From Dehalococcoidia bacterium (GTDB lineage Bacteria; Chloroflexota; Dehalococcoidia; GIF9; UBA5629), in the NCBI GenBank assembly GCA_050011565.1, contig JBEKIW010000002.1, positions 64,001 through 128,000 of the forward strand: 64,000 nucleotides of DNA, in the 5' to 3' direction. A program made the translations under genes and the position numbers. Shown piece after piece: positions 43,290 to 52,451 of this stretch; positions within the stretch are counted from its first letter, which is position 1, and every line of letters starts with the position of its first letter. The notes below the pieces were generated by a model. It made no database searches, had not been told where the DNA came from, and saw nothing but the letters and a program-made list of their open reading frames with translations.

Positions 43290-46200
43290 TTATGAAACCC
43301 CCTTTTTATGCTGCTTTTGCTCTGTGATGTCTTCCATGGCAAGTAATATCATCGGCTCGTGCCCCTTAACCGGCTGAATTCTGCGTGCATTGAGCAATAT
43401 CGTCTTGTGCCCGACAGTGGGGAAAAAGTGGTCAACTTCATAGTCATTAAAGTGGGCCTTCTCAGGCAAGATATCTTCCAGAAGCTCCCTTAGCTTGGGA
43501 ATATCCCATTGTCGGTTACCTATCTCGTAGATAAGTTTTTTCTCTGTGTCCTCTTTGCTGACCTGGAACATATTATAGAAGGCATTGTTTGCCGAGATAA
43601 TCCGAAGGCCTCCGCTTAACACTATCAGCGGCTCACGCACCGTATTTGCGATGCTCTCGGCAACCTCCTGGGCAGCTTCGGCTACGGCAAGCTCTTTGGC
43701 GGCTTTGGCTGCGGCAAGCTCTTTGGCGGCTTTGGCTACGGCAAGCTCTTTGGCGGCTTTGGCTGCGGCAACCTCTCGGGCAGCTTTTTTCTCTTCCGTG
43801 ATATCTACCATAGTCAATACGAGACCTTGAATGACATTTCCCACAGTGCGATAGGGCAAAATGTGCAGCGTATATGAGCGTGCGTCCTTGGCTTGCACTT
43901 CTATTGACTTCGGGACCAGCCTATCAAGCACCTTATTCAAATCTTCATCAAGTTTATCGTATAATAGGTTCGATGTTACGTGGTGGATGGGCCGGCCGAT
44001 ATCAGATTCTATAAGATTGAATATAGTGGTTGTTGCCGGGGTAAAACGCCTGATGTGCAGGTTCATGTCCAGGAATATGCTTGCAATTTGTGTGCTATTT
44101 AGCAGGTTATTCAAATCATCATTCGTCTTGGACAATTCAACGGCTTTCTCCTGAAGCTCTGCGTTCACCGTCATCAATTCCTCGTTAGTCGATTGCAATT
44201 CCTCTCTGGATGTCTCTAGCTCCTCGTTGGTGCTTTGGAATTCTTCGTTGGATTTTTCCATCTCTTCCCGGGTGGTAGAGAGGGTTTCTTTGCTCAATGC
44301 CAGTTCCTGATCCAGTTCCACAATACGCTTATGGCTCCTTGTTGACCGAGCGCGCTTCGTTTTGGTTGGTGCTTCCGGCTCAGGAGAAGTCACAGTTTGG
44401 AACATGACGCTACATAACTTTTGCATTCCCGCCAAGCCAGCGATTGGACTTACTTTCAGGTCAACTAACTGGATATTGTCATCCTGCTTCACTTCAATCT
44501 TATAGCAGCTAGTTTCTTGGTCTTTAAGGAACACTGTACGAAGAGCAGACGCTAGTTCCGCCCTTAGACCTTCTCGAGCCATATCCAGGATGTTCATTTT
44601 AAGCGGTCCGGTTGGAAGTTCCAGGTACTTGCCGGTTTGGCCATGAACGTAGAGCACATCGTAGCTTTGGTCGACGACAACACATGCCGGGGTGTATTTC
44701 TGCAGAAGTATTTTGTTGACTATTTCCGCAATGTTGAATGGCTTGGCCGTATCGCTTTTCGGCTCGCCGCCTGTCTCTGCGGGCTCTCTCTGAAAAGCTA
44801 TAGGGCCAATTTGCATCTGCTGCTTCTTTAGAAGAGTCACTTCCCTGCGTTGGTAGATCTTCCATCTTTTATCAAGAACCGAGAAGAGGTCTGAGTGTTT
44901 TCCTATGGTCTCAGCAGAGCCCAGGAAGAGAATTCCATCTTTGTTTAAGGAGTAGTATAGAAGAGGCACTAGCCTCGCCTGCAAATCGCTGTTCAGGTAG
45001 ATCAGCAGATTGCGGCAGCAAATCAAATCCACCTTTGAGAAGGGAGGGTCCTTGATGATGTCTTGAACAGCGAAGATCACCCTTTCTCTGATTTCTCTTT
45101 TAATAATATATGTATCCTCAGTCTGTATAAAGAAGCGGTGTAAACGTTCCGGCGACACATCAGCACAAATACCAATCGGGTAAATGCCACTACGGGCTCT
45201 GTCAATGGCAGCATCATCTATGTCTGTAGCAAAGACCTGTATATCGATGCCTTGATTCAGCTCACCCAGACACTCTATGACAATCATGGTTATAGAGTAT
45301 GCCTCCTCGCCGGTGGCACAACCGGGAACCCATATTCGGAGCGGTGATCTTGAGGACCTCTCGGAAATCAAGGTTTTCACACGGCTCTTAAGAGCCACAA
45401 AAGCTTCTTTGTCCCGGAAAGACTGGGTAACGCTGATTAGTAAATCGCTAAAGAGAGCTTGCGCTTCCGCCGGGTGCTGCTCCAGAAAGCTAACATATCT
45501 TGCAATATTGTCTATCTGGTTAATGGTCATTCGCCTCTCTATCCGCCGGTTCAACGTTGCTGGTTTGTATTGGGAGAAGTCATGCTTGGTGTACTGCCGC
45601 AATAGCAAGAAGACCTTTGCTAAATAATCGGGGAGTGTGACTGTAGCTGTTGGACGTTCTTCAATAAATTCCTTTTTAGAGTATCCGGCAAGCGAAAACA
45701 ACCGAGCCGGCATTTCTGACGGGCGCAAAACAAAGTCGGCAAGACCGCTATCTATCGCTTGTCTCGGCATCCCATCATACTTAGCTGAACTGGGCTCTTG
45801 CACTATAGCCAGACCAGTTTCACCCCTTATTTCTCTTAAGCCCAGGGTACCGTCCGTTCCGCTTCCAGAAAGAATGATGCCAATAGCCGCTCTCCCCCTA
45901 TCTTGAGCCAATGCCCGAAGAAAGAAATTAATGGGGAGCCTTAAGCCATGTGGTTCTGGTATTTCCAACAAAATCAAATTACCGTGTAATATGCCCATGT
46001 TCTTGTTTGGCGGAATGACGTATATATTGTTAGGTTTGACTCCCATCCCATCTTTTGTCTGATAGACAGGCATATCCGTACATTTCTGCAAGAGTTCAGG
46101 CAGTATGCTGACGTGGGACGGGTCTAAATGTGATACCACGACAAATCCCATACCGGTGTCTGACGGCATATTAGTAAATAGTTCTTGCAAAGCCTCCAGC

Positions 46201-46358
46201 CCACCAGCAGAAGCCCCTATACCAACGATAGGAAAATCGGTTTTCCCTTTCTGGCTGAGAGGAGTAGCTTTTCTGACCGGTACAGTTGCAGGGGATTCCT
46301 CTGTTTTGCTAGAGGCCTGCTTGGTTTTTGGCTTCGCCCTGTCTCTTTTTATCGCCAT
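43290..46358 (-). CDS. CheB methylesterase / CheR methyltransferase fusion with PAS domains
   Basis: CheB triad GASAGG, VSH, GSGTDG; CheR WVPGCATGEEAYS, ATDID, CRNLLIY; EELETS.EELQSTNEEL coiled coil. Confidence 0.95.
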   Translation of the reverse strand: MAIKRDRAKPKTKQASSKTEESPATVPVRKATPLSQKGKTDFPIVGIGASAGGLEALQELFTNMPSDTGMGFVVVSHLDPSHVSILPELLQKCTDMPVYQTKDGMGVKPNNIYVIPPNKNMGILHGNLILLEIPEPHGLRLPINFFLRALAQDRGRAAIGIILSGSGTDGTLGLREIRGETGLAIVQEPSSAKYDGMPRQAIDSGLADFVLRPSEMPARLFSLAGYSKKEFIEERPTATVTLPDYLAKVFLLLRQYTKHDFSQYKPATLNRRIERRMTINQIDNIARYVSFLEQHPAEAQALFSDLLISVTQSFRDKEAFVALKSRVKTLISERSSRSPLRIWVPGCATGEEAYSITMIVIECLGELNQGIDIQVFATDIDDAAIDRARSGIYPIGICADVSPERLHRFFIQTEDTYIIKREIRERVIFAVQDIIKDPPFSKVDLICCRNLLIYLNSDLQARLVPLLYYSLNKDGILFLGSAETIGKHSDLFSVLDKRWKIYQRREVTLLKKQQMQIGPIAFQREPAETGGEPKSDTAKPFNIAEIVNKILLQKYTPACVVVDQSYDVLYVHGQTGKYLELPTGPLKMNILDMAREGLRAELASALRTVFLKDQETSCYKIEVKQDDNIQLVDLKVSPIAGLAGMQKLCSVMFQTVTSPEPEAPTKTKRARSTRSHKRIVELDQELALSKETLSTTREEMEKSNEEFQSTNEELETSREELQSTNEELMTVNAELQEKAVELSKTNDDLNNLLNSTQIASIFLDMNLHIRRFTPATTTIFNLIESDIGRPIHHVTSNLLYDKLDEDLNKVLDRLVPKSIEVQAKDARSYTLHILPYRTVGNVIQGLVLTMVDITEEKKAAREVAAAKAAKELAVAKAAKELAAAKAAKELAVAEAAQEVAESIANTVREPLIVLSGGLRIISANNAFYNMFQVSKEDTEKKLIYEIGNRQWDIPKLRELLEDILPEKAHFNDYEVDHFFPTVGHKTILLNARRIQPVKGHEPMILLAMEDITEQKQHKKGVS
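43653..43787. repeat. In-frame 27-bp tandem repeat, 5 units, inside the CheB-CheR gene
   Basis: GGCT(A/G)CGGCAAGCTCTTTGGCGGCTTT x3 with two degenerate flanking units; encodes (KAAKELA[A/V]A)n. Confidence 0.92.
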
Positions 46359-46425
46359 TACAAAATCACCTCATACTTGTTCCACAAGCACGTTACCTGA
46401 ATCCTGTCTCAAACTGAAGTACTGA

Positions 46426-46456
46426 CAAGGGCACTAAAGCTACTTTAGTGCCCTTG
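46426..46456. other. Perfect 14-bp inverted repeat at the end of the ParA fragment
   Basis: CAAGGGCACTAAAG-CTA-CTTTAGTGCCCTTG. Confidence 0.8.
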
Positions 46457-46814
46457 CTTCACCCCCACATCTCCTTAAACTTGCACTAAGAGGGGGAAAG
46501 AGTTCTGCCAAACCTAAATCGAATTCCGAGGGCGCTACATGGAGGTTTTCCACATCCGTCTCCAGTATCACCCGGGTTATGGAGACCCCTTCATGACCAT
46601 CACACCGGTCCAAGACCGCGTCGTACATTGAGCGTTCTAGTGCCATCAGGTCAATGCCCAAGCCTGATGTTGCATTGGCCTGGGGATCAAAATCTACCAC
46701 CAGCACCTTGTTGCCGCTTTTGGCGAGGTCGCCAGCGACGCTGAGGTACGAAGTGGTCTTTCCACCACCCCCTTTGTGACTAGTGAAAGCTATACATTGC
46801 GCAGTTTTTGACAT
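46440..46814 (-). pseudogene. Truncated ParA/Soj ATPase (N-terminal half only)
   Basis: KGGGGKTT Walker A and VDFDPQANATSGLG are present; similarity ends after about 105 aa and there is no Walker B region. Confidence 0.75.
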
Positions 46815-46818
46815 TCTC

Positions 46819-47010
46819 TTAGCTTACCTCGGTTTTTGACAGCCACACATCAACGGTATCTTTACGGAAACGTAGCTGCCGGCCTACCTTGCTTACTGGT
46901 ATTTGCTTCTGCCTAACTAAACGATAAACACTTGCCTTTGAAATTCGCAGATATTCGGCAAGCTCGGGGGTAGTCATCAATTCTGACTTTCTTTCGTTTG
47001 AAACTTCCAT
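46819..47010 (-). CDS. Excisionase-family (HTH_17/MerR-like) DNA-binding protein
   Basis: LMTTPELAEYLRISKASVYRLV...IP..KVG.QLRF.K..VD.WL. Confidence 0.88.
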   Translation of the reverse strand: MEVSNERKSELMTTPELAEYLRISKASVYRLVRQKQIPVSKVGRQLRFRKDTVDVWLSKTEVS

Positions 47011-47430
47011 TGGCTCTATTTTCCCCTTTTTTAGCAGTATTGAACAATATTGCGCTCTACCTAAATTAGAGAATCACTATTGGTTAACAGTATGCATAAT
47101 ATATCAATAGCAAACAGATGCTGGAAAGACCCATTTTGGCTATTTCTTATCAGGACTTTAGTCACACACCCGACGCTCCTATACACTCAAGAGATGTGAG
47201 ATTGCTTGAAAAGCCTCGGTAGCAGGTCAATGTGCACGAGTCGAGACCGCTAGCCACCAAGTGGAACAAGTAAATCAACTTTCGGAATTAACTTAACGCT
47301 TGTTTTTTCAATTTGGAAATTAAGGGCACTTCAATGGTGAACCATGTGCTCCCGTACGTATGATTCATTTCTCGCTTTTCTACAGTCCAGCTGAATATGT
47401 GATTTACCGGGGTAACAAATAGGCTCTGAC

Positions 47431-47596
47431 GAGATTGCCACGCGGAGTTTATCCTGAGGGAGATTCTTCGCGGCGTTTACCCTGAGTGAGATTCTTCAGT
47501 CACTTCGTTCCTTCAGAATGACATTAACGAAGGGCTCAGAATGACAGTGGGGAAAGGGCACAGAGAATGGCAGAAAAGGCGAAGGGCTCGCAATGA
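47431..47596. repeat. Nested palindromic elements (three levels)
   Basis: Left arms GAGATT... at 47431, 47460 and 47488; right arms ...(AG/GC)AATGA(CA) ending at 47523, 47546 and 47596. Confidence 0.75.
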
Positions 47597-47615
47597 TAGG
47601 AAGGAGTTGCTAAGC

Positions 47616-47646
47616 AAACAGGCTCCGAGGTTATCGGAGCCTGTTT
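47616..47646. terminator. Hairpin terminator downstream of the glutamate synthase family gene
   Basis: 13-bp stem AAACAGGCTCCGA / TCGGAGCCTGTTT with A/T-rich flanks. Confidence 0.8.
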
Positions 47647-47665
47647 TATTTGAGCAATGCAAAAT

Positions 47666-49258
47666 CTAGCTGGTGAGAATCTTGACTGCTTCTTTCCTGT
47701 AGGCATCCATGAGATAGGGTATGCCGGTGACCTTGGCACACTCATCGGTCAGAGACATCAGCTCATTGCGCGTAATCGCGGGCACGCTGAAGCACCTGGC
47801 GCCGGCCATCAACTGCTGTAAGCCAACCTTGATTTTGTCGGAGTAGCTGTAGATACCGATGGCGCCCAGTGGGATATTCTTCATTTCATTGGCGCCGACA
47901 ATGCTCTTTACCTGCTCGTAGCAGACGAATATTTCCTCGGGCGTCGAGCCGAACTGACTGACCGTATTCGGCAGCTTGCCATCCTTTATCCACTCGGCGA
48001 TGTTTTTACCGACCATGCCCGGAATCATCAAAGCCCGGCCCATGCACACCGCCTTGACAAAAGGTGCACCCAGAGCAAGTGCCTTGAATACACCGTCTTC
48101 GCTGCTGAAACCGCCGGCAAAGGCCATATCAGGCGGCCGTTGGCCTTTATCAGATAGTATCTTGGCGAACTCGTAAGCCGCCGAATGGAGATAGAGGCTG
48201 GGAATGCCCCACTCCTCCATCATCCGCCACGGGCTCATGCCGGTGCCACCCCCAGAGCCGTCTATGGTGAGCAGGTCTATTTTGGCTTTTGAGCCCCATT
48301 TTATAGCCATGGCCAGCTCACGCAGGCTGTAAGCGCCGGTCTTCAAGGTAACGCGTTTGAATCCCAGATTTCTCAGTCGCTTAACTTCGGCATAAAATCC
48401 TTCCTCATCGATGAAACCGAGGCGGCTGTGCCTTTCAAATTCCTTGAGTGCGCCTTCCCTGAAAGCTGCCTGATTAATGGGGTCCGAGGGGTCGGGGGTG
48501 ATGATATAGCCGCGCTTCTGTAGCTCCAGAGCTCGCTCCAGAGAGTTGACCTTGATTTCGCCGCCGATACATTTGGCGCCCTGCCCCCATTTCAATTCAA
48601 TGGTCTCAATACCGTGCTTTTTGATGATATATTCAGCGGTACCCAATCTGGTATCCTCGACGTTCATCTGCACCAGTATTTCACCGAAGCCCTGATGATA
48701 CCGCCGGTACACCTCTATTCGGCGGTCCATATCCGGCGCTGCAATAACTTTGCCCTTGGCATCGCGCTCCAGACGCGGGTCGATACCGCAAACATTTTCA
48801 CCGCAGACAAGCGTAACACCGCTAATGGCAGCGCCGACGGCAAAATGCTCCCAGTTTTTGCGCGCTATCTCTGTAGAGCCCAGAGCGCCGGTGAAAATAG
48901 GGACCTTCATCTTGACCTTTATGTCCCAGCCGTAATCGGTCTCTGTATTTACTAGCGGGAACAGAGCGGTATCCGGGTCGCCAACAACACCCTTGGGCAG
49001 CCCCCTGGCTCCCAGGGCATAGCCTTGGATGTTCAGATGCGAGTAATCAACGGGGTAGTCCTTATCGGCGCCGGCGGTTATTTCACCAAAGGGTCCAGGA
49101 TAGATTAATTCCCGTCCGCGGAAAGTGGCTTTGAAGACTTCACAGTTCCCCGTGCAGCCGTCGAGGCAGCGGGAGCAGATACCGCTTCCGGGGGCTACAC
49201 TTCTGGAGCGATTGGCGGTCCTGGTGGCTTCGTCTGAATTCGGTCGTTGTAAATTCAT
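47666..49258 (-). CDS. FMN-binding glutamate synthase family protein (stand-alone synthase-like domain)
   Basis: IELKWGQGAKCIGGE, TIDGSGGGTG, FAGG, KALALGA...V.MGR; N-terminal CxxCxxxCxxxC; no amidotransferase domain. Confidence 0.88.
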   Translation of the reverse strand: MNLQRPNSDEATRTANRSRSVAPGSGICSRCLDGCTGNCEVFKATFRGRELIYPGPFGEITAGADKDYPVDYSHLNIQGYALGARGLPKGVVGDPDTALFPLVNTETDYGWDIKVKMKVPIFTGALGSTEIARKNWEHFAVGAAISGVTLVCGENVCGIDPRLERDAKGKVIAAPDMDRRIEVYRRYHQGFGEILVQMNVEDTRLGTAEYIIKKHGIETIELKWGQGAKCIGGEIKVNSLERALELQKRGYIITPDPSDPINQAAFREGALKEFERHSRLGFIDEEGFYAEVKRLRNLGFKRVTLKTGAYSLRELAMAIKWGSKAKIDLLTIDGSGGGTGMSPWRMMEEWGIPSLYLHSAAYEFAKILSDKGQRPPDMAFAGGFSSEDGVFKALALGAPFVKAVCMGRALMIPGMVGKNIAEWIKDGKLPNTVSQFGSTPEEIFVCYEQVKSIVGANEMKNIPLGAIGIYSYSDKIKVGLQQLMAGARCFSVPAITRNELMSLTDECAKVTGIPYLMDAYRKEAVKILTS

Positions 49259-49301
49259 TTTTCTTTACTCCTTTTTATTTTTGGTTTTTGCTTTTTTATC
49301 T

Positions 49302-50075
49302 TTAATTTATCTTTACCGGTATTCCCCTTTCCTTAAGGTATTTTTTGGCTTCAGGTATGGATATCTCACCGAAGTGAAAGATAGATGCCGCTAAAACTGC
49401 TGAGGCTTTGGCAACGGCTACCGCTTCATAAAGGTGCTCTAATGTACCGGCACCGCCTGAAGCCGTGACCGGTATACCTACGGCTTCGGCTACGGCTTTG
49501 GTCATCTCCAAATCGTACCCTTCCCTGGTACCGTCGGCATCCTTGCTGGTGAGCAGAATTTCGCCGGCACCCATTTTCTCCACCTTTTTTGCCCACTCGA
49601 CTATGTCCAGGCCTGTTGCTTCCGTGCCGCTTTTAACCACCACCTCAAGTCGGGGGCGACCGCTATTCTGCGGATTTTTAATGCCGTCGATGGCGACGAC
49701 AAGCCTCTGCTTGCCGAACTTCTTCGAGGCTTCCTTTATCAGGTCGGGATTTCTCACGGCAGCAGTGTTGATTGAGACCTTATTGACTCCGAGGTCGAAT
49801 AACTCTTTCATGTCTTTGGTGTCTCTGATGCCTCCGCCGACAGCAAAGGGGATGGTGACCTTGTCAGCGACTCTCTTGACCCATTCCAATCTGGTCCCCC
49901 TGTCTTCGGCACTGGCCATAATATCAAGGAATACCAGCTCATCCGCACCCTCCCGGCAATAAGCTTCGGCAGCCTCCACCGGGTCTCGGGCGTCCCTGAG
50001 GTTGACGAACTTTATGCCCTTGACTACCCTCCCCTCCTTGACATCCAGACAGGGTATGACTTTTACCACTTTCAA
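49302..50075 (-). CDS. hisF: Imidazole glycerol phosphate synthase cyclase subunit
   Basis: IPCLDV...VVKG..F, GADELVFLDI, VGGGI, VVAID, GAGEILLTS...DGT..GYD, ASGGAG, LAASIFH; both catalytic Asp residues present. Confidence 0.95.
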   Translation of the reverse strand: MKVVKVIPCLDVKEGRVVKGIKFVNLRDARDPVEAAEAYCREGADELVFLDIMASAEDRGTRLEWVKRVADKVTIPFAVGGGIRDTKDMKELFDLGVNKVSINTAAVRNPDLIKEASKKFGKQRLVVAIDGIKNPQNSGRPRLEVVVKSGTEATGLDIVEWAKKVEKMGAGEILLTSKDADGTREGYDLEMTKAVAEAVGIPVTASGGAGTLEHLYEAVAVAKASAVLAASIFHFGEISIPEAKKYLKERGIPVKIN

Positions 50076-51073
50076 CTCATAACCTCCTCAAATTTAATTA
50101 ATTTCTGATATTCCGTGACCGTGCTCATGGCGTAGTTGTCGGCTTCTATACCCGCTTCCTCGGCGGCGGCTACGGGATTAAGTCCGCCTATGAAAATCAT
50201 TCCAATTCTGTTGAGCTCGACAGGGATTTCGCAGACCGGTTCGCTGGTGTTACCCATTATCATTAGCCCGCCTAAGCCTGCCTCTTTCAATCTGGAAACA
50301 ACGTCTTGAGCTGTAGGAAGGCACAAAGCAGGTATTTCGCGAAAGTTAGCCAGAATTTTACCGTTACCCGTTTTAGCAGCATCTCTTACCGAGGTCATCC
50401 TGGCTCTGATAAAAACCTCGGAAGGGTCGAGCGAGGAACCGGCATAGTGAATGAGCTCTACGAAGCGAAAAGGCTGGTGGTCTCGAATCTGCAGTATGCC
50501 ACCGAATCGGGAGTCCATGGGAACGCCGGCCTTGAGCAGCGTGCCGTTTATAACGATACTGCATACCGTTGCCAGCCCTATTTTCCCGCGAGGTACGATT
50601 AACTCACCCAACGGCTCTCCAGCACCAGCCACCACCACCAGGTCGCTAACACAAATACCGGCGTCGAAAATTGGCTTCATTGCCTGTAGCGCCTTTTCGA
50701 ACTTGGCTTTTGGAAAAAAGGAAACGTTAACTGGAACCAGACCGGTGCCTTTCTCCCAATCGAAATAAGTGCGGAAGGCGAGTAGTTCGATCCTGGCAAT
50801 GGCGAAGCCAACTTTGTCTCTAACCAGGGCATTGCTCAGTTCCTCAATGCCGAGTTCGGTGATTAACCGGCCGTCCCTGCTGACAAGCCTAGTCAAACCG
50901 CGCTCATCCATCAGTTTCAGGTGGTATCTGACGGCTCTTTCACCCAGGTTAACGCCGCGGTTTTTTAAATGTCTACCGATGACTCTGGCTCCCAACGGTT
51001 GCTGGGAATCGTTCAGTATCTTAAGGATAAGGTGCTCTTTTCGCTTAACTTCTTGAGTTTCGATGCCAATCAT
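50072..51073 (-). CDS. nrpR: Nitrogen regulator NrpR (winged HTH plus one NRD/DUF128 domain)
   Basis: ERAVRYHL..MDE.GLT wHTH; TVCSI.INGTLLK.GVP, Y.GSSLDP.EVF, LANFRE.P, GGLNP.AA..E.GI. ATG at 51073. Confidence 0.9.
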   Translation of the reverse strand: MIGIETQEVKRKEHLILKILNDSQQPLGARVIGRHLKNRGVNLGERAVRYHLKLMDERGLTRLVSRDGRLITELGIEELSNALVRDKVGFAIARIELLAFRTYFDWEKGTGLVPVNVSFFPKAKFEKALQAMKPIFDAGICVSDLVVVAGAGEPLGELIVPRGKIGLATVCSIVINGTLLKAGVPMDSRFGGILQIRDHQPFRFVELIHYAGSSLDPSEVFIRARMTSVRDAAKTGNGKILANFREIPALCLPTAQDVVSRLKEAGLGGLMIMGNTSEPVCEIPVELNRIGMIFIGGLNPVAAAEEAGIEADNYAMSTVTEYQKLIKFEEVMS

Positions 51074-51106
51074 CAAAATAGCTACTGAAGTTGATATTTA
51101 AGGCCG

Positions 51107-51124
51107 TAGGAAACCGTTTGCCTA
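51107..51124. promoter_or_regulatory. Putative NrpR operator
   Basis: TA-GGAA-ACCGTT-TGCC-TA, a 7/8 match to the Methanococcus NrpR site GGAA-N6-TTCC, directly downstream of the -10 box. Confidence 0.7.
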
Positions 51125-51152
51125 TTATATAGATGGCCGAAAGACCTGTCAA
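51124..51152 (-). promoter_or_regulatory. Consensus sigma70 promoter of the nrpR-hisF-glt operon
   Basis: Minus strand TTGACA (51152-51147) - 17 nt - TATAAT (51129-51124). Confidence 0.88.
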
Positions 51153-51233
51153 TCCCTCGCTAACCTTGACTGTGAATGCATCAAAAAGTAATATTAGTGA
51201 AATTCACGAATCGTTGGTTAGGATGAAAGCAGC

Positions 51234-52451
51234 ATGTTGGCTTTGGAAGGTATAAGAATCCTGGACCTCACCCATTTGGTACCGGGTGCTTTATGCACCA
51301 TGATTCTGGCTGATTTGGGAGCCGATGTAATTAAAGTGGGAACGGCAGCCGGCGCTGGCGGTCGGGGTGCCGGAGTGGGCATGATGCTCACAGCCGACGA
51401 AGAGAAAAAGGTAGCCGCTTTCGATGCCTTGAACCGCAACAAGCGGAGCATCGGGCTTAATCTCAAGTCTGACAAAGGCCGGGAAATATTCTATAAGCTG
51501 GCGCAGACGGCTGACGTCGTTGTTGAAGGTTTCAGGCCGGGCGTGGTGAAGCGGTTAGGTATAGACTACGAAAAGATAAAGGCAATTAATCCCCGCACTG
51601 TCTATTGCTCCCTAAGCGGCTACGGGCAGGACGGCCCCTACAGTAATTTCTCCGGACACGACATAAATTATATTTCGATAGCCGGCGCTCTTAATATCCT
51701 GGGCGCACCGGACCGCCCGCCGGCGGTTCCCCTGAACCTGCTGGCTGATTTTGCCGGTGCCTCACTGCACGGTGTCATCGGCATACTGACTGCATTTGTA
51801 GCCAGAGACAAAACGGGCAAGGGGCAGTACGTGGATATAGCCTATACGGATGGGGCAATGAGCCTCATGAGCTGGTTTATCAGCAGCTATTTCGCCGGCG
51901 GCTGCACGTTCAACAGAGGCGAAACCTGGCTACATGGTGCCTATCCCTACTATGGCGTATACGAAGCTAAAGACGGCAAATATATCAGCATCGGCTGTGT
52001 CGAACCCTGGTTTTGGGAGAACTTGTGCCGTGCCCTGGGCAAAGAAGAATATATCCCTTACTGCATTTCACCGGAACACTTTCTGCACAAGCCGGAGGGC
52101 GAAAAATGGGAAGAAATCTCTTCCTATCTCAAGAAGGCCTTCCTCACCAGGACCAGGGATGAGTGGTTCGAATTCCTGACCGGCAAGGACGTGCCGGTAG
52201 GCAAAGTCTACGGCTTCGATGAAGTGTTTAATGACCCTCAGGTACTGCACCGTAAAATGGTTTTAGAAATAGACCATCCCACGTTGGGGAAAGTGAAACA
52301 CCCGGGCATAGCCGTTAAGCTGTCCGACACTCCAGGCAAGGTGAGAAGCCTGGCACCTATCGCCGGGGAAAATACTGAAGAGATATTGCGTGAGTTAGGC
52401 TATAATAAACGGCAGATCGGAAAGTTGCGTCAGTCCGACGTAATAGGTTAA
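51234..52451 (+). CDS. Family III CoA-transferase (CaiB/BaiF)
   Basis: ILADLGADVIK, NRNKRSI.LNLK, EGFRPGV, SGYGQDGP, GHDINY. Confidence 0.94.
   Translation: MLALEGIRILDLTHLVPGALCTMILADLGADVIKVGTAAGAGGRGAGVGMMLTADEEKKVAAFDALNRNKRSIGLNLKSDKGREIFYKLAQTADVVVEGFRPGVVKRLGIDYEKIKAINPRTVYCSLSGYGQDGPYSNFSGHDINYISIAGALNILGAPDRPPAVPLNLLADFAGASLHGVIGILTAFVARDKTGKGQYVDIAYTDGAMSLMSWFISSYFAGGCTFNRGETWLHGAYPYYGVYEAKDGKYISIGCVEPWFWENLCRALGKEEYIPYCISPEHFLHKPEGEKWEEISSYLKKAFLTRTRDEWFEFLTGKDVPVGKVYGFDEVFNDPQVLHRKMVLEIDHPTLGKVKHPGIAVKLSDTPGKVRSLAPIAGENTEEILRELGYNKRQIGKLRQSDVIG

Follow-up and report, generated by a model that had tools for sequence, protein, structure and literature searches.

A putative NrpR-regulated operon of Dehalococcoidia pairs an apparently HisH-free type of HisF with a glutaminase-less relative of glutamate synthase

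Results

An nrpR-hisF2-gltX operon

We analyzed a 64,000-nucleotide (nt) stretch from the genome of a Dehalococcoidia bacterium (assembly GCA_050011565.1, contig JBEKIW010000002.1, positions 64,001 to 128,000; hereafter the window) and focused on three genes, which encode an NrpR-type repressor, a HisF-type cyclase that we call HisF2, and a glutamate synthase-like protein that we call GltX (Table 1). A preliminary description, made from the sequence alone, had reported three co-oriented genes behind one strong promoter and ahead of one terminator, with a 4-nt overlap between nrpR and hisF and 43 nt between hisF and the synthase-like gene. We found all of these features. The nrpR stop and hisF2 start codons overlap (TTGA), with GAGGAGG 7 nt upstream. 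No clear ribosome-binding site was seen for nrpR. The hairpin at the end of the operon folds at -26.6 kcal/mol (z -6.3; matched by 0/200 shuffled sequences). It was not called by the terminator scan, and the opposite strand offers the better U-tract. The preliminary description had missed a palindrome, GGAAACCGTTTGCC, that starts 2 nt past the -10 box. There was no Rfam match at positions 46000-52000 of the window.

Table 1. Features of the operon and their positions in the window.
Feature	Position	Strand	Description
nrpR	50072..51076	minus	334 amino acids (aa); winged helix-turn-helix (HTH_12, PF08461) and one NRD1/2 unit (NRD1_2, PF01995)
hisF2	49302..50075	minus	257 aa; TIGR00735 hisF; translationally coupled to nrpR
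gltX	47666..49258	minus	530 aa; PF01645; stand-alone predicted flavin mononucleotide (FMN) (beta/alpha)8 protein
Sigma-70 promoter	51124..51152	minus	TTGACA-17-TATAAT; 12/12 consensus
NrpR-type putative operator	51109..51122		GGAAACCGTTTGCC; overlaps predicted transcription start
13-bp hairpin	47616..47646	minus	likely terminator, possibly bidirectional

HisF2 is a separate clade with an altered HisH face

HisF2 scored 338.4 bits against the TIGR00735 HisF equivalog model (cut-off 294.55) and aligned end to end with Thermotoga maritima HisF, whose residue numbering we use. Identity as AglZ/WbuZ was considered and rejected, as the scores were below the cut-offs (222.7 vs 310 bits for NF038364 and 250.5 vs 299.7 bits for TIGR03572). 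The neighbors of hisF2 are nitrogen genes, not a polysaccharide locus.

We searched 251 genomes of the class and found 38 HisF2 matches in 36 genomes. Their identity to the window protein ranges over 67-100%, against at most 61% for the next match. The counts leave out partial genes at contig ends (G223, G250; G, C and L labels are ours, for genomes, contigs and loci), degenerate copies (G055, G079, G133) and one truncated duplicate of the window gene; the unpublished genome G244 enters the class tallies only. In a quick maximum-likelihood tree of 59 sequences (unrooted), 18 ordinary HisF proteins were split from HisF2 with full support (SH-aLRT 100), and the window protein did not group with ordinary HisF.

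The residues expected of a cyclase are retained. D130, D176, K19, F23, T104, G177, S225, E46, K99 and E167 are present in 38/38 HisF2 proteins, D11 in 37/38 (the lone exception is broken at its N-terminus), and the phosphate-binding motifs in 37-38/38. We take D11, D130, D176, K19 and these motifs to have their usual catalytic and phosphate-binding roles.

In contrast, L2, K4, F74, C124 and D219, each found in 16-17/17 ordinary HisF proteins, occur in 0/38 HisF2 proteins. The change at F74 (17/17 vs 0/38) affects what is presumably a binding hot spot. Q123 is found in 17/17 ordinary and 4/38 HisF2 proteins, D98 in 17/17 and 27/38, and R249 is kept in 21/38 HisF2 proteins. Compared with the ordinary HisF of the class, the window protein has L2K, F74T, D98N, C124R, D219S and R249K. 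D98N was rejected as a clade signature: only 4/38 have N, and 27/38 keep D. Residue D98 is reported to contact HisH K181 and N12 on activation, and R249 to be a hinge (available parts of PMC8115485, 10.64898/2026.05.29.728626 and PMC9032424).

We compared HisH-interface positions (PISA of 1GPW, PMC9032424 S1 Table; D219 is absent from this list) with other positions, using 125 columns conserved in at least 16/17 ordinary HisF proteins. Of the interface columns, 13/21 were changed in HisF2, versus 17/104 of the others (Fisher p 5e-5, for sequences that are related and so not independent). Within HisF2, conservation was 0.72 for interface columns and 0.85 for other columns; within ordinary HisF it was 0.83 for both. 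Because conservation is lower at the interface in HisF2 only, the face looks like a freed surface. By these comparisons, HisF2 is a separate clade in which the predicted cyclase site is kept and the predicted HisH-docking face is remodelled.

Other unusual HisF arrangements were seen in the class. In G215 (L135:4889-6425), hisH, ordinary hisF and hisF2 lie directly in tandem. Three closed genomes of 1.4-1.5 Mb (L137-L139; G079, G055 and G133) have a HisF2 copy that evolves fast (52-55% identity to the window protein) and precedes an nrpR with its own operator. This copy keeps D11 and D130, has E167A and a changed 142-144 loop, and is possibly decaying or repurposed. A third, separate HisF without the interface lies directly before carB, with no carA between, in G219 (L194:1450-2205) and G156 (L307:1498-2259), and hisH was not found in either genome. 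Its 120 best homologues, which include proteins labelled Armatimonadetes and Spirochaetia, keep D11 and D130 and mostly lack D98, K99, Q123 and E167. These findings suggest that dependence on HisH was lost repeatedly.

The genome has an ordinary hisF in a split glutamate synthase cluster

The preliminary description found no hisH or other his gene in the window and raised the possibility of a second HisF. There is no other his gene among the ORFs of the 40-58 kb part of the window, and the window hisF is not the only one in the genome (99.2% complete). One hisH and a second hisF (hisF1), whose product is 57% identical to HisF2, both lie inside a split glutamate synthase cluster on contig C3. 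Genome-wide searches placed hisD, hisC and hisB, and hisA and hisI, elsewhere on C3. No glutamate dehydrogenase (GDH) was found in the genome.

The order in the cluster is ferredoxin, hisH, flavin adenine dinucleotide (FAD) oxidoreductase, gltB1, hisF1, gltB2, gltB3, nrpR, response regulator, amt, amt, glnK, glnA, glnA, nadE, carA, carB and nrpR. Searches identified hisH, hisF and gltB2; most other names come from reading the sequence. The window operon looks like this cluster minus both glutaminases (HisH and GltB1). The interweaving of hisH and ordinary hisF with the split synthase operon, with hisF between gltB1 and gltB2 (L016:9384-17054, which is G000:C3:159383-167053), recurs in at least nine other loci of the class.

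Genomes with HisF2 alone lack hisH

We found that HisF2 is the sole HisF in 12/36 HisF2 genomes. hisH was found in 0/12 of these, compared to 24/24 genomes with both HisF types. For genomes at least 90% complete, hisH was present in 0/9 HisF2-only genomes and in 160/164 with another HisF. Class-wide, 166/182 well-assembled genomes have hisH. The 16 that do not comprise nine HisF2-only genomes, the two with the other interface-less HisF (G156, G219), three with no full hisF match, and two with ordinary HisF.

The HisF2-only genomes are 85-100% complete, and about 0.7 losses would be expected from gaps. They belong to seven families, require at least three changes on the tree, and include members of sister pairs with and without hisH (G128/G036, G212/G054). 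The rest of the histidine pathway is present: hisB in 12/12, hisD in 11/12 (one partial), and a HisA-length PF00977 match in 12/12. Compared to genomes with both types, the HisF2-only genomes also have less often canonical gltB2 (1/12 vs 21/24) and Amt (1/12 vs 20/24), and gltB1 is found in 0/12.

Because hisH, gltB1 and (except in 1/12) Amt were not found while the histidine pathway persists, we consider it probable that HisF2 acts as a free-ammonia cyclase. As a stand-alone barrel it would convert PRFAR (N'-[(5'-phosphoribulosyl)formimino]-AICAR) and NH3 to imidazole glycerol phosphate (IGP) and AICAR (5-aminoimidazole-4-carboxamide ribonucleotide). Since these genomes also lost Amt and glutamate synthase (GOGAT), their content points to ammonium-rich conditions. 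This counts against one suggestion of the preliminary description, that a second HisF is used under nitrogen limitation.

GltX resembles the FMN domain of glutamate synthase

The preliminary description had noted that the synthase-like protein lacks an amidotransferase domain of its own. Indeed, GltX has no glutaminase domain, and there is no glutaminase gene in the operon. Its one Pfam match is to PF01645 and is weak (55.9 bits, cut-off 20.4); it has no NCBIfam match, no PF00208 or PF02812 (GDH) domain, and no Pfam match to the hydroxy-acid oxidase family. It aligns to GltB2 with an hhalign probability of 98.5%. There is no [3Fe-4S] cysteine motif after the barrel (GltB2 has C413, C419 and C424), and the PPPHHDIYS loop is missing.

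Several motifs are shared with glutamate synthase. E154, Q197, K223, K229, R276-H-S, K306 and T339 are invariant in 82/82 GltX proteins, as are the motif patterns E-x-K-x-x-Q-G-A-K and G-G-T-G. The GltX motifs ELKWGQGAK-IGG, R-H-S, LKTG and DG-GGGTG-SP parallel EIKVAQGAKPGEGG, RHS, VKLV and SGNSGGTGASP of Azospirillum brasilense GltS. The counterpart of GltS S859 is ambiguous (G127 or S128). Four N-terminal cysteines (C28-C31-C35-C39; CxxCxxxCxxxC) are invariant and could hold another cluster. The His-x-x-Arg loop after strand 7 is catalytic in FMN alpha-hydroxy-acid oxidases; GltX lacks it and has DGSGGGTG there.

An alignment-based structural model of GltX (mean predicted local distance difference test score (pLDDT) 79.5, predicted template modelling score (pTM) 0.84) is an FMN-type barrel; a single-sequence model (pLDDT 37) was unusable. 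In Foldseek searches, glutamate synthase ranked first by TM-score over the query (0.46, others 0.35-0.43). The top matches by Z were flavocytochrome b2 and glycolate oxidase (Z 24, root-mean-square deviation 3.3-4.4, ~290-300 residues aligned); for the FMN alpha-hydroxy-acid oxidases/dehydrogenases in general, Z was 23-24 at 12-18% identity. Because hydroxy-acid oxidases match as well or better, the fold does not fix the substrate. We lean, from the motifs, toward a glutamate synthase-like activity. No solved relative was found by phmmer or by a profile search, in which the matches were designed barrels and noise. In GltS, ammonia is reported to add to 2-oxoglutarate in front of FMN, and the imine to be reduced by hydride transfer (available part of PMC8097209). 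By analogy, it is fairly probable that GltX is an ammonia-fed reductive aminase of 2-oxoglutarate.

GltX is widespread and is largely complementary to GDH in HisF2 genomes

GltX was found in 52/251 class genomes: 27/36 with HisF2 and 25/215 without. In a survey across all taxa (at least 600 loci, of which the best 80 were kept), it was found in many anaerobic bacterial phyla and some archaea and was highly conserved (69-94% identity). Close relatives have the source labels Dehalococcoidia or Chloroflexi. Among the best 80 loci, hisF2 was within 6 kb of gltX in eight, all Dehalococcoidia, and no hisF was beside gltX in any of the 50 non-Chloroflexota or unassigned loci, many of them on short contigs. 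Conservation of the adjacency, which the preliminary description proposed to check, was found within the class: the order nrpR-hisF2-gltX is present in eight genomes, including that of the window. hisF2 and gltX are co-oriented in other orders in 12 more, five of which have nuoE/F/G-like genes between them.

We found that a strong GDH match was present in 8/9 HisF2 genomes without GltX and in 4/27 with GltX (excluding PF00208 matches weaker than 1e-60, which among HisF2 genomes affects G212, G128 and G179). Altogether, GltX, a strong GDH match or both are present in 35/36 HisF2 genomes. In seven genomes hisF2 directly abuts gdhA, and the gdhA beside hisF2 is nearest the archaeal type. One Nitrospirae locus (L257) has gdhA at the position where the related L242 has a second gltX. 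Five genomes (G036, G054, G067, G139, G198) have GltX and no GDH, GltB1 or GltB2 match; there, GltX is the only candidate found for a glutamate-forming enzyme. GltB1 also had no match in the eight HisF2-only genomes that have GltX.

Other genes recur near gltX. An LhgO-like FAD oxidoreductase gene (261 bits, under the cut-off of 299) is near gltX or hisF2 in 10 loci (L049, L055, L057, L061, L067, L086, L090, L094, L098, L109); its product might serve as electron partner or clear 2-hydroxyglutarate that forms as a side product. A gene for a protein like one of 870 aa (no NCBIfam match at 1e-15), which we take to be of a phosphoenolpyruvate/pyruvate-binding type, adjoins gltX in 14 of the best 80 loci (L236, L238, L241, L242, L244, L246, L250, L252, L255, L257-L259, L261, L298). 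It is nearly always upstream of gltX and often right behind the operator. Five loci from Nitrospirae and an Altiarchaeales archaeon (L242, L253, L254, L255, L288) have two divergent gltX paralogues in tandem, ~80% and 48-57% identical to window GltX, and a heteromer is possible. In the window's own genome, a nuoEFG-like trio (C1:669682-672733) is 44-65% identical to the GltX-linked trio; that it serves GltX is a guess.

A putative NrpR operator is common to both hisF operons

The genome has three nrpR paralogues (55-57% identity), including that of the operon. The hisH-hisF1-gltB cluster on C3 carries GGCAACCGCTTGCC just after its -10 box, in a position equivalent to that of the window palindrome. 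From the window and C3 sites we drew the pattern GG[AC]AA-N4-TT[GT]CC. The archaeal NrpR operator is reported as GGAA-N6-TTCC (available part of 10.1101/2024.03.05.583561). The window site has one mismatch to it; in the window such matches, taken alone, are no more frequent than by chance (29 found against 31 expected).

The class pattern occurred 43 times in 965 kb of related loci (~6 are duplicates from overlapping loci), compared to ~11 expected from the rate in the window's own genome (22 in 2.0 Mb). By our reading of the site list, about 30 sites are just upstream of nrpR, hisF2, gltX, a ferredoxin gene or hisH, and many directly follow a TTGAC/TATAAT-like promoter. Homologous operons have similar promoter-plus-palindrome layouts in front. 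In loci of Nitrospirae, Thermodesulfobacteriota and Actinomycetota, too, the pattern stands before gltX or nrpR.

Because both carry the palindrome after the -10 box, the two hisF operons are likely in one predicted NrpR regulon. For the same reason we rejected a simple reciprocal switch, with HisF2/GltX at high nitrogen and HisH-HisF1/GOGAT at low nitrogen. Repression by NrpR is reported to be 2-oxoglutarate-dependent, the operator opening at high 2-oxoglutarate, and expression of archaeal nrpR is reported not to be nitrogen-regulated (available part of PMC9765008). The suggestion of HisF use under nitrogen limitation therefore stands in part: the putative operator implies derepression at rising 2-oxoglutarate, but it is also found at the ordinary hisH-hisF-gltB operon.

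Sequences flanking the operon

A family III CoA-transferase gene (window 51234-52451) is divergent from nrpR, with a promoter region common to both; close relatives (L051, L053, L223, L266) retain this arrangement. Past the terminator, positions 47430-47560 contain a short non-coding repeat, similar to repetitive extragenic palindromic (REP) elements, with ~18 partial matches elsewhere in the genome. Beyond it is an apparently truncated 124-aa ParA-like ORF (46440-46814), upstream of chemotaxis-methylase-like and PAS histidine-kinase genes (both named by sequence reading).

Discussion

A possible glutamine-bypassing module

We give a little better than an even chance to the notion that the operon is an NrpR-controlled module that bypasses glutamine, with HisF2 and GltX both fed by free ammonia. 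NrpR would repress at low 2-oxoglutarate and release the DNA as 2-oxoglutarate rises. HisF2 would close the imidazole ring of histidine as a stand-alone barrel. GltX would condense NH3 with 2-oxoglutarate at FMN and reduce the imine, in effect carrying out a GltS half-reaction with bulk ammonia. Electrons might enter GltX through the N-terminal four-cysteine cluster, from ferredoxin or from a NuoEFG/HydBC-type module encoded elsewhere. HisF2 and GltX would have a substrate and a regulator in common without forming a complex, and the module would save the ATP of glutamine synthetase (GS) where ammonium is plentiful.

Several findings weigh against this notion. Absence of hisH is not exclusive to HisF2: G132 (98% complete) and G186 (93%) have an ordinary HisF with intact interface and no hisH match, and G093, G124 and G234 (74-87%) also have an ordinary HisF and no hisH match. 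The absence in G132 and G186 could be either an assembly gap or ammonia use like that of Corynebacterium glutamicum; in both genomes (L192, L305) the ordinary HisF gene adjoins hisI. Since one cluster holds hisH, hisF1, gltB1, gltB2 and in many cases amt, losing them together amounts to one event per lineage, and p-values are overstated because kin are not independent. The window HisF2 retains Q123. GS is kept in 11/12 HisF2-only genomes, and five of these genomes that we tested keep other class I glutaminase domains (TrpG/PabA, PdxT), along with CarA-, GuaA- and PyrG-length glutaminase-domain matches that were assigned by length only. Because such domains are kept, a borrowed glutaminase could still serve HisF2. 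For GltX, hydroxy-acid oxidases lead the structural matches by E-value and Z, and glutamate synthase is outside the top 50 by Z. The FMN and 2-oxoglutarate ligand roles of the residues conserved between GltX and GltS are assumed by us, and a literature search for these roles found nothing. An electron-donor gene is not in the window operon, and gltX and gdhA share one operon in L252, L259, L292 and L298.

Regulation also presents a difficulty. Derepression would come at high 2-oxoglutarate, a signal of nitrogen shortage, when reliance on free ammonia would be odd. The tension might be resolved if rising 2-oxoglutarate first calls the ATP-free route. Low-potential electrons might let GltX work at lower ammonium than GDH, and the three NrpR paralogues might set different thresholds. 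A wholly glutamine-free metabolism was considered and rejected, as GS and other glutaminase domains remain.

Other explanations

Two alternatives concern the reaction of GltX. HisF2 might be fed by ammonia while GltX acts on another 2-oxo or 2-hydroxy acid (e.g., 2-oxoglutarate/2-hydroxyglutarate) or another amine, and belongs to the regulon through its effect on the 2-oxoglutarate pool. The structural matches to flavocytochrome b2 and glycolate oxidase, the LhgO-like oxidoreductase in 10 class loci, and the frequent coexistence of GltX with GDH or GOGAT all fit this. We nevertheless think it unlikely, given the GltS-type motifs, the missing His-x-x-Arg loop, the five genomes that would be left without a recognizable glutamate route, and the replacement of a second gltX by gdhA. 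It is quite unlikely that GltX, or the GdhA replacing it, runs oxidatively and frees ammonia from glutamate for HisF2, standing in for HisH. The presence of GltX or strong GDH in nearly all HisF2 genomes, often in the same operon, agrees with such a role, as do the archaeal-type GdhA neighbors (a group that we take to be often catabolic) and NuoEFG-like partners that could take electrons. However, where GOGAT and GDH are both missing, glutamate has to come from GltX. GltX is also common in the absence of HisF, and an operator that opens at high 2-oxoglutarate, as the available part of PMC9765008 reports, suits a consumer of 2-oxoglutarate and not a producer.

The other two alternatives concern the partner of HisF2. 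HisF2 might still use glutamine, with PdxT, PurQ or TrpG/PabA as a borrowed glutaminase that fits the remodelled face. pdxT is beside hisF2 operons in seven loci, and several loci have purL/purQ there. On the changed surface, some new residues have become fixed (T74 in 35/38, R/K124 in 37/38, C40 in 35/38), and the gate residues are kept. We judge this decidedly unlikely because the interface columns vary as on a freed surface, most loci have no pdxT and the gene, where present, is mostly divergent from the operon, and HisF-HisH coupling is reported to need matched partners (available part of PMC3896937). The preliminary description had also proposed that HisF, with HisH, supplies ammonia to the synthase. 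In its favor, hisF directly precedes a GltB2-like gene in both operons of this genome, and the window gene order recurs in other genomes. We find this very improbable. HisF makes no ammonia, and conserved residues for docking HisH are lost from HisF2. Eight genomes keep HisF2 and GltX with no hisH found, and 25/52 class genomes have GltX without full-length HisF2, as do all 50 non-Chloroflexota or unassigned loci among the best 80. Moreover, gene order is freely shuffled, and hisF2 pairs as readily with the unrelated gdhA.

Meaning of a possible ammonia-fed operon

The stronger form of the glutamine-bypass notion, to which we give just short of an even chance, is that GltX would be a glutamate-forming enzyme of a third kind, distinct from both GDH and GS/GOGAT. 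As a flavin/iron-sulfur aminase that arose from the glutamate synthase barrel, it would fix free ammonia with low-potential electrons and without ATP. With the HisH-free HisF it would form a portable module, which would be the sole source of glutamate and histidine for several Dehalococcoidia lineages.

Textbook accounts give ammonium only two ways into glutamate, GDH and GS/GOGAT. If our interpretation is true, an ammonia-fed operon for histidine and glutamate would be an undescribed way of assimilating nitrogen. If GltX makes glutamate from free ammonia, it would fill a pathway hole in genomes with neither GDH nor GS/GOGAT, and many "glutamate synthase family" annotations would need correction. 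HisF-HisH is a model for allostery and ammonia tunnelling, and a natural partner-free clade bears on the coupling residues; sister genomes with both forms offer a ready experiment on the adaptation of a cyclase to bulk ammonia. NrpR, HisF2 and GltX are all small and testable in Escherichia coli. In open-access literature screened by title and start of abstract (subscription papers were not covered), we found no description of the HisH-free HisF clade, this NrpR operon, or GltX.

Comparison with known systems

Each protein of the operon descends from a known family. HisF2 keeps the catalytic, phosphate-binding and gate residues of HisF (T. maritima 1GPW/2WJZ/7AC8; Thermus thermophilus 1KA9; TIGR00735). 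Unlike ordinary HisF, it has interface residues that have been exchanged or can vary, it can be the only HisF of a genome in which no hisH is found, and it is encoded in an NrpR operon and not in a his operon. Ammonia is reported to serve HisF in vitro, and C. glutamicum to grow on ammonia after deletion of hisH (available part of PMC3896937). Histidine synthesis there is HisH-independent and ammonia-fed in vivo, as we infer here. However, C. glutamicum has an ordinary HisF and still has hisH, whereas our genomes have a dedicated clade of paralogues, and some of them lost hisH naturally.

Among amidotransferases, NAD synthetase is a known case with ammonia-only counterparts, single-domain ammonia-dependent enzymes being reported (available part of PMC3376133). 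There too, an ammonia-using synthase is found beside or instead of the glutamine-dependent form, with lineage-specific loss of either. The pathway and fold are different, and ammonia use is experimental there and predicted here.

GltX shares PF01645, a predicted FMN barrel and FMN/2-oxoglutarate motifs with the FMN domain of glutamate synthases (A. brasilense GltS alpha 1EA0, Synechocystis Fd-GltS 1OFD/1LLW, and archaeal-type GltB2). In contrast to them, it has no glutaminase, central or beta-helix domain, no [3Fe-4S] cysteines and no PPPHHDIYS loop; it has a new N-terminal CxxCxxxCxxxC and occurs in genomes without GltB1. GdhA has the same predicted net reaction and the same place beside nrpR and hisF2, but GltX belongs to an unrelated family and would use FMN and an Fe-S cluster. 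The FMN alpha-hydroxy-acid oxidases have the barrel fold in common with GltX and differ in their catalytic loop. NrpR, finally, resembles that of Methanococcus maripaludis and Methanosarcina mazei in its winged helix-turn-helix and NRD domains and, putatively, in an operator palindrome at nitrogen promoters. In contrast to archaeal NrpR, it is bacterial, has three paralogues in one genome, is apparently autoregulated, and has the putative operator variant GG[AC]AA-N4-TT[GT]CC.

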